DNA of 64,000 nucleotides from a bacterium (GCA_027624915.1 JAQBTR010000003.1:5627-69626); one strand, 5' to 3'. Positions 32,461-47,646 are shown, counted from the first letter of the stretch. Numbers and translations: made by a program. The notes: generated by a model from the sequence alone, not told the origin.

Positions 32461-32679
32461 TCATTCCTTCTTTGATGCAGTAACTACTATATAGTCAACT
32501 TTAATATGTTTGTACAAAAAATTCATGATGCTTTTTATAATAGGTGAAAAAAATGGTCCTGACAGCATTGTTTTATCAAAATTCTGTATAAAGCCCTTAA
32601 GTGCCTCTTTTTTTATAGAAACAACATCTATGCGGTCATAGAGTAGGTCAGAGCGTGTGTTTTGATTATTATCAGACAT
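32461..32679 (-). CDS. Hypothetical small protein, last gene of the operon.
   Basis: ORF only. Confidence 0.3.
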   Translation of the reverse strand: MSDNNQNTRSDLLYDRIDVVSIKKEALKGFIQNFDKTMLSGPFFSPIIKSIMNFLYKHIKVDYIVVTASKKE

Positions 32680-32690
32680 ATAAAATGTAT

Positions 32691-33677
32691 CTATTCCTCT
32701 GTAAGAATAAGGTTTTTTATTACTCGTCGCCTTAGTGATACGGAATGTCTCAAAAGAATACTATATATCGGAGCTAATGCTTTCCAAGCTATATTTGGAC
32801 GCATATAAAACTTAAGGGTGCGCACATGATCACGAAATGTATTTCGTGCTCGTTTTTCGATCTTTCCAAAAACTACACGAAGTGGTACACCCTTCTTAGT
32901 GAGCCTTGCTAAATGTACCGCCTCTCGTGCCCAAAAACTTACATTTTGTCCTGACAGTGGGTGAAGTAATAATGCCTCACCTCCCCAAAATAATTCTTTA
33001 TCCGTAAACATTTGTTTACGTAATTTTATATTTGGAAACGAGAACGATCGCCCGATACGTTTGCCCCTTTCCTCTTCTATATACTCGTTAATTACACTTG
33101 GTCGATTTTCTAATAACAACTTCATATCAACGTCTTTTGTTCTTGGTATAACAATAAATGTGAAAAATGAAGGGCGTGACTGATATACACCGATTACGGC
33201 ATTGGGCATATCAAAACTTAAGATGTCATGTCTGTATGACTCTTTGAGATCTCCATTATATTCCTGCATATACACATCTGGGGAATCTTCCCTCTCCCAC
33301 TCTCCTTCTGTTGTAGCAGTATTTTTACATTCGACAGGCTCGCTCGACAAAAGCTCTCTTAACTTACTACTCCACACCCACCGAGCTCTCTCTTGAGTAA
33401 CGATTCCTAGGTCATACGTAACAATCGTTTTACCAGTCTTGTCTAAAAATCGAATAGTCTGAACATAAAAAAGTCCATCACTCAAATCACTAGTATTGAT
33501 ACCCATGCGGTCTAAGGCCTCTATACCTCCAGGCTGTAACAGAATGATCTCTGGACCAGGATGTGACTCGAAAGGATAGTGAATATGAAATGGAACCTGA
33601 ACCCCAACACGCCTAAAAGCATACTCCAGTAGCTGACCGGGTATATGACTTGTAAACAAACATTTAGATTGCGGCAT
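32691..33677 (-). CDS. Hypothetical protein with a weak resemblance to FAD-dependent oxidoreductases.
   Basis: GGEALLLHPLSGQNVSFWAREAVHLA resembles the GDAAH.PLTG.G.N.A..DA flavoprotein motif. No N-terminal GxGxxG is present. Confidence 0.3.
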   Translation of the reverse strand: MPQSKCLFTSHIPGQLLEYAFRRVGVQVPFHIHYPFESHPGPEIILLQPGGIEALDRMGINTSDLSDGLFYVQTIRFLDKTGKTIVTYDLGIVTQERARWVWSSKLRELLSSEPVECKNTATTEGEWEREDSPDVYMQEYNGDLKESYRHDILSFDMPNAVIGVYQSRPSFFTFIVIPRTKDVDMKLLLENRPSVINEYIEEERGKRIGRSFSFPNIKLRKQMFTDKELFWGGEALLLHPLSGQNVSFWAREAVHLARLTKKGVPLRVVFGKIEKRARNTFRDHVRTLKFYMRPNIAWKALAPIYSILLRHSVSLRRRVIKNLILTEE

Positions 33678-44400: not shown

Positions 44401-47400
44401 AATAAGTGCACCACTCGCATTGGTATCAATGGTGTCACAAGATGGTAGACCAATCTGAATACCACCAGCTTGAATATCGATACCGTAAGCAAATGTAGAA
44501 GTAGCTGATATGTTTGTCGTGTGGAGTACCGAACTTGTTGCGGCACCTGAAGCGTTGATATAAAAACCGTTTGTACCTGAGTTAACTGCGAATACATACC
44601 CAGGGGTTGTTGAGTTCACGCCAACTCGTCCATTTGAAAATACTGTGAAATCGTTGCCAACAGCAAAATGTCCATCTGTTGTTGTTACGTTTCCAACACC
44701 AAGACCACCCGCAAAGTACACATCATTTGCAGAGGCGCCAGCTACGGCAGGTCCAACATTAAGCCCTGTGACCGCACCTGTGGTTGTTCCTCCAAAAAGC
44801 TGTGAACCGTAACCAATGAGGTTACCTGATGCTTGGATTGTTGATGAAGCATAGACTGATGCACCCGATGTTGTCGCAAATACGTTATCGAGAGAAAAGA
44901 GCTGACTTTGAAGGTGAAAGAGAATTTGATCAAAATCTACTGTTTCAGTATCAATATTACGCCCTCCATTAAGAAGTATTGTGTCCCCAGAGGTAATGGT
45001 CTGGTCACTGCCCGTATCACCAGAAAAATCAAACGAAGAAATTGGAAGCGTTGAGCTACAGATAACGGCACCCGTAGAATCAACCACGAGTGAAGTTGTA
45101 CAGCTCGCAATATGATTTAGACTTATCGCATTTACATGAATTCCACCAACAAATGTTGATGTTGCCGCTCCTCGAACAATTAATCGGCCGCCAGCATACA
45201 GATTATTTGATGACTCAATTACACCATCAGTTGTTGTTACAACACCCGCACCAATCCCACCCGTTACATACAAATCTCGTGACACGCCAGAGCCGCCTCC
45301 GATGCTTACACCCGTTACTGCACCTGATGTCGTACCACCAAGAAGCGAGTTACCACTTACGGTTAATGATGAAAGTGTTCCGGCACCACCAGAAGAAATA
45401 CGTGTTACGTTACCAAACTGCAAGTCACCGGATGTGATATCAATGTTCCCCGATGAAACATTAACTTCACCTGCTGGCGTCAGTGTGATATTTCCTGTAC
45501 CCGACTCAATGGTAAGTGCAGTTGAAGTTGAGGTAAGTGTTTTAGTAAGAAGGGTTTCTGAATCAAGAACATTACTTGTAACACCACCAACAAAAGATGA
45601 TGTTCCCGCACCACGAATATCAAGAACAGAATAGCCAATGATATTTCCTGATGCTTGTAGTGTACTTGATGCATAGACTGATGCACCTGATGAGGTGGCA
45701 AAAATATTGTTCATTGAGTACAGGATGTCATTTATATCAACTATCAATCGGTCACCAGCTTGGCCAGTTGTTGTTGCATTCTTACCACCAACAATGGTAA
45801 GCACATCAGAATCGGTGATATCTTGATTTGTTCCCGTATCTCCTGCTACGTCAAAATCGGTTGAGCCCGCAGCGCCCGCATCAGCTCCACACACAATTGC
45901 GCCCGATGCATTTGTTTCAAGTACACTGGCACCCGAACATCCAGCCAAGTGATTAAGACTTACAGAATTAACATCAATCCCACCAATAAATGTTGATGTA
46001 GCAGAGCCGCGCGAAATAACTCTACCCCCAGCATACACATTACCTGACGCCTCTATGACACCGTCCGTTATCGTGGAATTCCCTACACCAAGCCCACCAG
46101 ATACATAAAGATCGGCACTTGCATTACTTGCACCTCCAATAGACACGTCCCCACCACCAGTGAGTGTAGGACTCGTTGTGCCAGTTCCTATTGCGTCGCC
46201 CGCTGCTGTTAAGCGTATAACTGTTCCAGTATCAGTCCATCCGCTATCAACGCCTGTAGGACAAGCGCCATTCCCAGACGTACATACATTTTCTTCGTTA
46301 TAAGTGAACGTTGAACCCTTAACAATTATTTTGCTACTAGCTCTTCCTATATTTGAATCGCCAAAGGCTCCAAAGTTACCACCGACCTCAAGAACTTGGT
46401 CAAACGAACCATATTTTGCAGAAAGCCCCTCATTAAACGTTGCACGACCATGAAAAATACTCTGTCCATCAACACTCAAGTTTTCTGTTCGTAATGTTTC
46501 GGTGGCACGTATATATGGCGCCGTTATATCCTTGAGACCGATAATTTTTTCACCTTGTAGAACACGGGCCGTCACATATTCTTTTGCAAAAAGATTCTTT
46601 GTTTCAGTGTCGCCGAGTACTTTTACATTCCGTGAAAAGATAGCATCATCAAAAACCGCGAGTCGACCATCGACTCGCAGTGCTTTTTCTAAATGTGTAG
46701 CGCCTTTAACTTGTAAGGTTTTACCTACCTCAACTCGTCCTTCTAAAAAAACATCGTCGTATGTTATGTTCCCATTTGCCGTGACAAACGCAAGTGTAAA
46801 TTCTTCAGAAGAAAGTCCGTCCAAATAATCAGAGTTTAAATTTTCAACCTTTGTAAGCGAGCTTATGACAATTGGTGCTGTACCATCTTCAGCAAAAGAA
46901 ATAAATTGTCCTTCGATCTCAACATTTCCATAAATCGCTACATTACCATTTTTATCGAGCAACAAAACTTCGTTTGCATGAGTACCTGCTCGATGGCCCA
47001 TGAGAGTATCAGCATCACGAATTTTTTCGTATACACCAAAAATAAAATCATCAGCTGCATTAATTAAATTTCGTGATGGAAGAATCGTAAGCGCCAATAT
47101 AAGAAACAATAAAAATCCTGAGAGACGCTTATTCTTTGCAATCTTTTTTGCCTCTGTCTTTGTTCGGCGCCACACACGATGCCAAATACCAAAGTGGGAT
47201 TCAACATTAACATCCATAAAGTTCATAAATTTTCCTATGAACTTTTCAAACAAAGTATCATTCTTGAGATCTAACTCATCCTTGTTGAGTAGTACTTTTC
47301 CTGGCGTGAATTCCAAACTCTCTTCCGAAATTGGACTTGTATTTGCAGCCTTTGGGATTGCTGCAAAATCTGCAAAATGAGCCTTGGGCTTTTGTTGCTT

Positions 47401-47646
47401 ATTAAATAAATTTTGGCTATATACCTCGAGAACAGACTTTTTACTTCCTCTGTCTGCTGCCTGAACAGCAATATATTTACGAAGATCCTGACGTGTTGTA
47501 TGCCAGTTACGTCCAATTTTCTTAGCCTCAAGCTTCCCACGACGAGCAAGCAGACTCAAATATTCGGCACTGTATGGGGTGTCTTTTGCGGCTTCTGAAA
47601 CCGGAATATATGCAGGATTCTGTTTTTTTAATTTTCCTTTACTCAC
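38413..47646 (-). CDS. Giant 3077-aa surface protein: N-terminal HTH-like domain, one transmembrane helix, then a very large repetitive Gly/Thr/Ser-rich extracellular region.
   Basis: A single 9.2-kb ORF. The N-terminus [47 protein letters not shown] is an excisionase/HTH_17-like pattern. The transmembrane helix is [16 protein letters not shown]. Recurring modules include GGLGVGN.T.TDG..E.SGN.YAGGR.I.RG.ATSTF.GG and [21 protein letters not shown]-terminal PT-rich linkers [19 protein letters not shown] occur twice. Confidence 0.6.
38447..38858. repeat. Intragenic direct repeat: an exact ~80-bp sequence in two copies about 330 bp apart (38447-38527 and 38778-38858).
   Basis: GGTTCCGAAACAATCACTGACTCAGATACTGGCTCAGGAGTTGGTTCTGGTTCCGGCGTAGGCTCTGGTGTTGGTTC is present twice. 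Further long internal repeats lie around 42.95-43.10 kb and 43.96-44.10 kb. Confidence 0.8.

Follow-up and report, generated by a model that had tools for sequence, protein, structure and literature searches.

The minus strand of a 64,000-nt stretch of bacterial DNA (GCA_027624915.1, JAQBTR010000003.1:5627-69626; the window, with all coordinates counted from its first letter) carries, next to the gene of a giant surface protein, a string of genes between positions 38395 and 32691. It encodes a membrane protein (TM415), a polyprenyl synthase, a UbiA prenyltransferase, an AttH-like protein, a ferritin-like protein (FERR) and a 328-aa protein (G328). Judged from sequence comparison, the string belongs to an undescribed and rare Patescibacteria gene cluster for a terpenoid or prenyl lipid, drawn from known superfamilies, of which the window is a cyclase-less variant; no paper describing this cluster was found in a literature search. 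The explanation that we favor, and in which we place about half of our confidence, is that these genes constitute a conserved module for building and tailoring a membrane-bound isoprenoid that would serve as an envelope lipid.

The strong evidence for such a module lies, in our view, in a gene set that is kept at other loci, and not in the spacing of the genes. This module is found again in at least eight other independent Patescibacteria loci, and the same families are clustered in the window, L001, L004, L008, L009/L015, L011, L020 and L032. The loci of this type (type 1) are L001, L004, L008, L009 (identical to L015), L011, L020, L021, L025 and L032; L001 encodes a "Patescibacteria group bacterium" protein with records labelled Saccharibacteria, L009 is from Candidatus Ryanbacteria, and the UbiA of the L001 lineage, though not this genome, is represented in contigs from the Hainich H41 groundwater well. 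The order in type-1 loci is giant-protein homologue, a TSP_3-repeat protein on the opposite strand, polyprenyl synthase, UbiA, a 375-aa protein (C375), AttH, TM415, FERR and G328. The later genes are permuted between loci and the outer flanks vary, which points to selection on the gene set. The UbiA proteins of these loci are only 37–47% identical, implying an old divergence. Profile searches and synteny, by which an earlier sequence-only reading of the window had asked to be judged, sustain its UbiA and AttH assignments and find the genes still clustered in homologous genomes.

C375, encoded at L001 10828-11955, L004 11807-12943, L008 5078-6199, L009 7434-8585, L011 7062-8171 and L018 1926-3137, displays an invariant DIDDT (DxDDT) motif and QW motifs, and matches squalene-hopene cyclase (SHC; E 2e-11) as well as cyclase chains of 361–365 aa. 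These features identify it, at the level of sequence, as a single-domain class II terpene cyclase. A tblastn search revealed no C375-type cyclase anywhere in the window, and the product made there should therefore be acyclic.

All eight consecutive minus-strand open reading frames (ORFs) from 47646 to 32461 were found where the sequence-only reading had placed them, in the gene order it had given, and the NCBI annotation pipeline (PGAP) has the same genes (O2794_01495 to 01525). They encode the giant protein (38413-47646; 3077 aa from a GTG start), TM415 (37148-38395; 415 aa, or 405 aa from the ATG at 38365 chosen by PGAP), the polyprenyl synthase (36109-37146; 345 aa), UbiA (35282-36112; 276 aa), the AttH-like protein (34305-35285; 326 aa from an ATG, the same as in PGAP), FERR (33664-34308; 214 aa), G328 (32691-33677) and a 72-aa ORF (32461-32679; hypothetical in PGAP). 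A longer GTG ORF is possible for the AttH-like gene (34305-35333; 342 aa) and is unnecessary. The successive junctions measure 17, 1, -4, -4, -4, -14 and 11 nt, the three of -4 nt being ATGA overlaps, and the first becomes 47 nt if the PGAP start of TM415 is used. The tight minus-strand string that had been claimed, with overlaps or gaps of up to about 18 nt, is confirmed by this range of -14 to +17 nt. Elsewhere in the window, same-strand junctions counted between ORFs of at least 150 aa are likewise 20 nt or shorter in about 9 of 20 cases (~45%); at this background rate, seven such junctions in succession have a chance probability of roughly 0.4%. The spacing is tighter than the background, and alone it is weak evidence and no proof of function.

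Upstream, the giant gene is preceded by lepB (47861-48373), after which two neighbouring terminator-like sites, each a hairpin with a T-run, lie on the minus strand (47705-47763; stems of 14 and 12 pairs). These strong hairpins imply that the giant gene opens a new unit. Downstream, murC comes next (31053-32339, minus strand; three Mur ligase domains in Pfam). The 121 nt between it and the 72-aa ORF (32340-32460) showed no terminator-like site on the minus strand, and read-through into murC is therefore possible. With operon-like spacing throughout and a strong terminator only upstream of the giant gene, the giant gene and the module are very probably co-transcribed as one operon. The single operon of the sequence-only reading fits this spacing; it is not a general feature, since most relatives carry an intervening opposite-strand gene, and co-transcription with the giant gene is special to the window and possibly L025. 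The 72-aa ORF, also counted as an operon member, is unsupported: it has no homologue in any related locus and no Pfam or NCBIfam family, and its status as a gene is doubtful. Inside the 5' part of the giant gene (codons ~322–331), a perfect 12-bp palindromic hairpin with seven G-C pairs and a T-rich stretch is present on both strands at 46655-46681; it could be due to chance or be a pause or attenuation site.

The giant protein is predicted to consist of a cytoplasmic N-terminus, one transmembrane (TM) helix, ~2,880 extracellular residues, a C-terminal module and a Pro/Glu/Thr-rich tail. Its composition is dominated by glycine (12.7%), threonine (11.2%) and serine (10.1%), and no Pfam family matches it at E ≤0.1. 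The N-terminus includes a putative excisionase/HTH_17-like helix-turn-helix (aa 13–59; 47470-47610, minus strand), which covers 45 of the 51 positions of the Pfam HTH_17 model with an E-value of 0.0032 (18 bits; cut-off 27) and resembles the PHROG excisionase phrog_1840 over aa 14–64 (E 3.4e-4), with no PDB match by sequence. A free-standing 74-aa MerR/HTH_17 gene is found just upstream of the giant-homologue region in L004 (1372-1596); in the window a comparable helix-turn-helix is fused to the giant N-terminus. The sole TM helix predicted by a Kyte-Doolittle scan spans aa 177–195 (47062-47118, minus strand). The C-terminal module (aa 2789–2902; 38941-39282, minus strand), which contains the motif PYCVRV, is common to all giant homologues, and the best-kept stretch shared with the L001 giant is 39% identical over 319 aa. 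The tail (38416-38940, minus strand) ends in LEPPTT. The ending TLEPPTT of the window (38416-38433) is mirrored by SLEPPTV, LVLEPPA, PIDEPPQA and PIDQPPQV in the homologues of L001, L008, L020, L021 and L025, and the motif could serve as a signal for sorting or attachment at the C-terminus; it has no TM helix behind it. A regular-expression search retrieved four copies of a motif starting CDT[IV] and five of Y[VI][ST]GG[LI]G[VA]G, and self-BLAST of the protein revealed no internal repeats.

All nine type-1 loci for which upstream sequence is available (the window, L001, L004, L008, L009, L011, L020, L021 and L025) have a giant homologue directly ahead of the module, so that the coupling to a giant surface protein, which the sequence-only reading had singled out, recurs wherever it can be seen. 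This adjacency, conserved despite the divergence of the proteins and the changing flanks, is the best evidence for a functional tie, to which we would give roughly a third of our confidence. The main competing explanation falls just short of even: the module is real, and its position beside the giant gene reflects inherited gene order and compact packing with no functional coupling. The whole window is compact, tightly packed and almost entirely minus-strand, and it shares with L001 a long syntenic block comprising the module, murC, PEGA, mreB, DNA polymerase III delta', BNR and the ribosome recycling factor (RRF) gene, an order that identifies the window organism as a relative of that Patescibacteria lineage. 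The adjacency to murC is found in L011 too. Moreover, minimal UbiA-AttH-G328 or AttH-G328 sets occur on short contigs with no giant gene visible, and the opposite-strand gene stands between giant gene and module in L001, L004, L008 and L009. Against mere inheritance of gene order speak the nine neighbourhoods out of nine, which differ in flanks and internal order, and the old divergence evident from the UbiA proteins.

The polyprenyl synthase that had been claimed is unambiguous (Pfam polyprenyl_synt, PF00348; E 3.2e-53; 181 bits against a cut-off of 27). Both of its Asp-rich motifs are intact, the first (FARM) as DDLID within HDDLID and the second (SARM) as DDMLD within QDDMLD, and residues D92/D93/D96 and D232/D233 are invariant in nine sequences. 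With an aromatic residue five positions ahead of the FARM (position -5), archaeal geranylgeranyl diphosphate and bacterial farnesyl diphosphate synthases make nothing longer than C20. This position is Ser in the window enzyme, Ser, Ala or Gly in type-1 enzymes, and Phe in those of a second type of locus described below. The chain-length class could not be read from NCBIfam, where all 17 equivalog matches score far below cut-off (best, 189 bits against 450). The sequence argues against a classical short-chain enzyme, and the small -5 residue is compatible with a chain longer than C20.

The UbiA protein belongs to its superfamily as claimed (Pfam UbiA, PF01040; E 2.3e-12; 47.2 bits against a cut-off of 34.2). 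Seven hydrophobic segments are predicted, as for a polytopic protein, and the motifs NDYYDxxxxGExN, YxxPxxRxK and ExxHxxxD (ExxHxxxDD...E) are invariant in seven sequences, with both Asp-rich motifs kept. Its best NCBIfam equivalog scores 34 bits against a cut-off of 217, and its weak matches spread over chlorophyll synthase and uncharacterized "prenyltransferase" models; the family profile retrieved no PDB chain at E ≤1. Attempts to place it in a known clade (UbiA/MenA, digeranylgeranylglyceryl phosphate (DGGGP) synthase, chlorophyll synthase, lycopene elongase, or decaprenylphosphoryl-5-phosphoribose (DPPR) synthase) with NCBIfam and PDB gave no usable match. The sole PDB match of the profile (E 1.5) is to a class I terpene synthase, at its metal-binding NDYYS motif, and is not significant. 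The family is rare: a word-index search gave seven homologues, and surveys of 185,579 species genomes and of JGI metagenomes gave six and 11 loci, respectively. By these comparisons, the protein is an intramembrane prenyltransferase of a new, rare subfamily.

The same subfamily occurs in a different operon in the type-2 loci (L006, L012, L014 and L024), in the order divergent GGPPS-like polyprenyl synthase, UbiA, PMT_2 (a C-type glycosyltransferase, GT-C) and a flavoprotein like geranylgeranyl reductase (GGR); some of these loci lie in Victivallales-labelled genomes with sigma-54 and heptosyltransferase genes. The position of UbiA directly before a GT-C and a GGR-like gene suggests a third explanation, in which the product is a polyprenyl(-phosphate) carrier or ether-type lipid for glycosylation or assembly of the Ser/Thr-rich giant (compare DPPR synthase with GT-C, or archaeal dolichol and DGGGP). 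Fitting genes are found in related loci: a GT-C-like/TPR gene stands between the giant gene and the polyprenyl synthase in L020; in L004 and L009, an orthologous protein that combines 12 or more TM helices with TPR repeats follows G328 directly; and GT2 genes adjoin AttH-G328 pairs. The window is a cell-wall gene neighbourhood and its giant protein is 21% Ser and Thr. Nonetheless, a carrier lipid is quite unlikely: the window unit has no GT-C or TPR gene, no geranylgeranylglyceryl phosphate synthase, phosphatase or sugar-activating gene is linked, the class II cyclase of the relatives and the hydratase are foreign to known carrier-lipid pathways, and the failure of UbiA to match solved structures speaks against it as well.

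FERR contains, according to alignments, a full di-metal ligand set of the pattern E/ExxH/E/ExxH (E31, E53xxH56, E112 and E146xxH149). Two of four family members match Pfam Rubrerythrin, all below cut-off (best E 0.0015; window protein E 0.053). Searches against the PDB gave weak matches to designed di-iron proteins, symerythrin and bacterioferritin (E 2e-4 to 0.2; best overall, 1.9e-4), and a PaaA-like protein is also weakly matched. FERR is, on this basis, a putative four-helix-bundle di-iron oxidase or desaturase; the ferritin-like claim is supported by its ligands and, weakly, by its database matches. L009 joins AttH and a ferritin-like domain in a single 570-aa protein (L009 8582-10294, equal to L015 9803-11515). 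A second ferritin-like fragment of 121 aa is located at 11841-12206 in L009.

G328 has no Pfam, NCBIfam or PDB match by sequence. A search of 1.84 billion representative proteins yielded 20 relatives (E ≤0.001), and a word-index homologue search recovered the query alone. Its AlphaFold2 (AF2) model has a predicted local distance difference test (pLDDT) score of 92.2 and a predicted template-modelling (pTM) score of 0.90. Foldseek reported 472 PDB matches at E ≤0.001, led by PnpA, HpxO and PHBH (E ~1e-13, TM-score 0.70) along with tetracycline destructases (TM-score 0.70), and including 3HB6H. The model is confidently assigned to the fold of the group A flavoprotein monooxygenases (PHBH). However, the GxGxxG and GD fingerprints for flavin adenine dinucleotide (FAD) are missing in all 20 members. 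The N-terminus reads (T/S)xxxP(G/A)xLL instead, and the GD(A)AH...P..G motif has become WGxxxLxLHPxxGQ with loss of the Asp. The FAD-oxidoreductase-like protein of the sequence-only reading consequently survives as a fold, and a redox role is not to be assumed for it. In relatives, the DxDDT proton donor of the cyclase is of the SHC type, for which no epoxide would be needed, and this fits a flavin-less G328. Identity with a divergent GGR was considered and rejected: hhalign found no significant similarity to the GGR-like neighbour of L006 (probability 0.1%) and aligned only the GD-motif region. In L027 the AttH and G328 genes share a 4-nt overlap; in L032 the two are neighbours and come directly after UbiA. 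Distant G328 homologues (25% identity) lie divergently beside a 478-aa radical SAM gene at L028 4494-7019 and L029 5488-8013, in an apparently non-CPR (candidate phyla radiation) setting with sigma-70 ECF, rhomboid and OYE genes. In L030 (2-493), a true GGR-like flavoprotein with a clear GAGPGG is divergent next to a motif-less G328 homologue.

The fold of G328, which it shares with the aromatic hydroxylases PHBH, PnpA and 3HB6H, and a FERR ligand set resembling that of Coq7-type hydroxylases recall a prenylated aromatic, in which the established UbiA-family enzyme would prenylate a quinone-like head group and UbiH/UbiI-like and Coq7-like enzymes would hydroxylate it; the MstE pathway, in which a class II cyclase of the monodomain type cyclizes a prenylated aromatic, offers a precedent (PMC12414744). 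We consider this very unlikely, given the missing fingerprints in every G328 member, the absence of a methyltransferase, decarboxylase or aromatic-precursor gene from any locus, the distance of UbiA from the UbiA/MenA equivalogs, and a hydratase that has no part in quinone pathways.

The AttH/CrtC-like claim is borne out over the whole protein: the family profile aligns PDB 2ICH, a putative AttH, over positions 14–313 (E 7.3e-21), and Pfam Lipocalin_9 matches aa 196–313 of the 342-aa ORF, or ~aa 180–297 of the 326-aa protein (E 7.3e-12). PF07143, the N-terminal AttH/CrtC domain, has no match in the window protein and a weak one in the L032 orthologue; identity among family members is only 19–30%. 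The catalytic residues of CrtC are His239, Trp241, Tyr266 and Asp268 in R. gelatinosus numbering (PMC4717167). In a comparison with 2ICH, the "LDREW" position is acidic (E or D) in all seven family sequences; in place of the Asp of "WDW", the window protein has Arg and L020 has Met. CrtC, kievitone hydratase and the hydroxy-GDGT (glycerol dialkyl glycerol tetraether) synthase Hgs hydrate isoprene double bonds to tertiary alcohols (bioRxiv 10.1101/2025.10.20.683597; PMC4717167), and Hgs acts with the desaturase Ted from an overlapping gene (bioRxiv 10.1101/2025.10.20.683597). The AttH-like protein is, by analogy, a putative isoprene double-bond hydratase. The C50-carotenoid or end-group tailoring logic first proposed, with UbiA as a lycopene elongase (CrtEb/LyeJ-like) and AttH as the carotenoid 1,2-hydratase CrtC, has in its favor that the two families are combined in carotenoid end-group chemistry and that hydratase-desaturase pairing, analogous to Ted and Hgs, is classical for acyclic carotenoids, but it is almost certainly wrong, because no SQS_PSY phytoene synthase or CrtI-type desaturase was detected in the window or the related loci, UbiA falls far below its equivalogs, the module's own synthase with its small -5 residue points to a long prenyl donor and not dimethylallyl diphosphate, and a class II DxDDT cyclase like that of the relatives is not used in carotenoid pathways.

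TM415 is an orphan family with no Pfam, NCBIfam or PDB sequence match, whose orthologues in L001, L004, L008, L009, L011 and L020 are 36–42% identical. At least five TM helices are predicted for this polytopic protein, which conserves His, Asp, Glu and Lys at several positions; its C-terminal beta-sandwich bears two invariant Cys. The AF2 model, built from a three-sequence alignment, is moderate at best (pLDDT 67), and its C-terminal domain is faintly reminiscent of a carbohydrate-binding module (CBM) or jelly roll (Foldseek E ~2e-3).

The chemical steps, acceptor, chain length, localization and link to the giant protein that we infer for the isoprenoid module are as follows. The polyprenyl synthase would make an all-trans prenyl diphosphate, and the UbiA-type enzyme would move the prenyl chain onto a membrane acceptor. 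The AttH-family protein could then hydrate a trisubstituted isoprene double bond, terminal or internal, to a tertiary alcohol, with FERR carrying out an O2-dependent desaturation or hydroxylation of the same chain. G328, having lost its FAD-binding glycines, may act as a non-redox or atypical partner, perhaps in substrate binding or presentation, while TM415 would handle the product at the cell surface through its outward-facing beta-sandwich. The resulting envelope lipid might support, anchor or modify the giant fibre. A more ambitious proposition, and a rather unlikely one, is that some Patescibacteria own a dedicated terpenoid-lipid pathway, built from these components and, in most lineages, the monodomain class II cyclase, with a product that is physically linked to giant fibres for host contact: it would anchor them as a lipid, reinforce the membrane where they are based, or serve as carrier in their glycosylation.

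Several observations weigh against the reconstruction of the isoprenoid module. Three proteins of its relatives are missing from the window, namely the cyclase, the TSP_3-repeat protein encoded on the opposite strand and the polytopic protein with TPR, and its cluster may be a decaying or rewired version; the splitting of giant gene and module by the opposite-strand gene in four relatives counts here too. Because G328 is devoid of FAD fingerprints, the canonical epoxidation or hydroxylation step may be missing. The ferritin-like assignment remains under every curated threshold, resting on the ligand motif and weak matches, and in two of six FERR orthologues the last ligand His is replaced by Tyr. 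The acceptor is putative; UbiA-fold enzymes also include cyclases and phosphoribosyl transferases, and the membrane part of TM415 has no recognizable fold in a poor model. No genes of the methylerythritol phosphate (MEP) or mevalonate precursor pathways were seen in the 64 kb.

The remainder of the window is a housekeeping, cell-wall-rich chromosomal stretch that encodes MraW, two penicillin-binding proteins, Mur ligases, MurA, MurC, two MreB and MreC, as well as RseP, RRF, class I LysRS, GreA, RNase R, LepB, PriA, Def and Fmt. Carotenoid backbone genes (CrtB/phytoene synthase, CrtI) and quinone genes were not detected in the 64 kb. Rfam and tRNA scans returned only a tRNA-Glu (5690-5762), and no RNA element in the operon region. 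The two MreB paralogues (21749-22798 and 27689-28702) are 49% identical by tblastn and 5 kb apart, with MreC (21169-21837) beside the first. A PEGA-domain membrane protein (30158-31075, plus strand) is encoded by the only plus-strand gene between murA and murC, and the same inverted PEGA gene (39% identity) lies between murC and mreB in L001. A poly-gamma-glutamate hydrolase family protein (8103-8642; E 1.8e-38) is encoded beside RNase R, and the lysyl-tRNA synthetase (16881-18449; tRNA-synt_1f E 1.5e-87) is of the class I, archaeal type. Upstream of the operon, a 595-aa ORF with no Pfam family (51696-53483, minus strand) is followed by a polysaccharide-related block (53903-63997, minus strand) with GH5/GH42-like, EamA transporter and GH6 cellulase-family (E 3e-50) proteins, a 332-aa ORF with no assignment, a polysaccharide deacetylase, a chitin/cellulose-synthase-like GT2 and a 704-aa PA14 and LamG protein.

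CPR/Patescibacteria count as scavengers of lipids with very little biosynthesis of their own, and a survey of triterpenoid cyclases recorded no squalene-hopene cyclase in CPR (PMC7306690). If the more ambitious proposition of a fibre-coupled pathway is true, it would imply endogenous, surface-organelle-linked lipid synthesis in these presumed scavengers, and would give CPR their first reported class II terpenoid cyclase system. An isoprenoid module of six to nine genes, conserved beside a giant surface protein, provides a testable handle on how envelope and host-contact structures are built or modified. It also defines orphan families whose genomic partners are evident: the new subfamily of UbiA, the PHBH-fold proteins without FAD motifs, and TM415. 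With natural variants that have or lack the cyclase, it should be straightforward to assign the product by heterologous expression.

Comparison with known systems places the module among several pathways. Acyl-ACP desaturase and Coq7 are soluble di-iron lipid enzymes of the ferritin-like superfamily. FERR resembles them in its E/ExxH/E/ExxH four-helix bundle, encoded beside lipid enzymes, but it is much smaller (214 aa), has no significant match and does not fully keep its ligands in orthologues. Lycopene elongase and C50 pathways (CrtEb, or LyeJ with CruF/CrtD) likewise combine a UbiA-family enzyme with terminal isoprene hydration, although the window has no carotenoid backbone genes and its UbiA is not assignable to a clade. 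With Hgs and CrtC the module shares the two-domain AttH fold, matched over the full length, and a linked oxidizing partner, as Ted is to Hgs; the partner is ferritin-like here, whereas Ted is a B12-radical SAM enzyme. The merosterolic acid pathway of MstE also pairs, as the relatives do, a prenyl synthase and UbiA with a monodomain class II cyclase of ~370 aa (PMC12414744). MstE has DxD where the Patescibacteria cyclase has DxDDT, and no chorismate-derived head-group genes are linked to the latter. The prenyl-lipid tailoring logic of the sequence-only reading may persist in a conserved module, but its nearest analogy shifts to prenylation-(epoxidation)-cyclization terpenoid cassettes, because most relatives carry the class II cyclase that is missing from the window. 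In the PlaT1-4 cassette, which leads to phenalinolactone, brasilicardin, atolypene and longestin, a polyprenyl synthase, a UbiA enzyme, a flavin monooxygenase and a type II cyclase perform prenylation, epoxidation and cyclization in this order (PMC11317874). Compared by component type only, the same four are present in the Patescibacteria type-1 cluster, with the cyclase taken from the relatives. The differences are the missing cyclase of the window, a flavoprotein-fold G328 devoid of FAD fingerprints, a relatives' cyclase of 375 aa that has one domain and a DxDDT of the SHC type and is not oxidosqualene-cyclase-like, and a host that is a reduced-genome symbiont-type bacterium rather than an actinomycete. 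To these components Patescibacteria add a hydratase of the AttH family, a ferritin-like protein and a membrane protein of an orphan family. The PlaT1-4 cassette appears to be the closest known logic, extended here by a hydratase and a di-iron protein.

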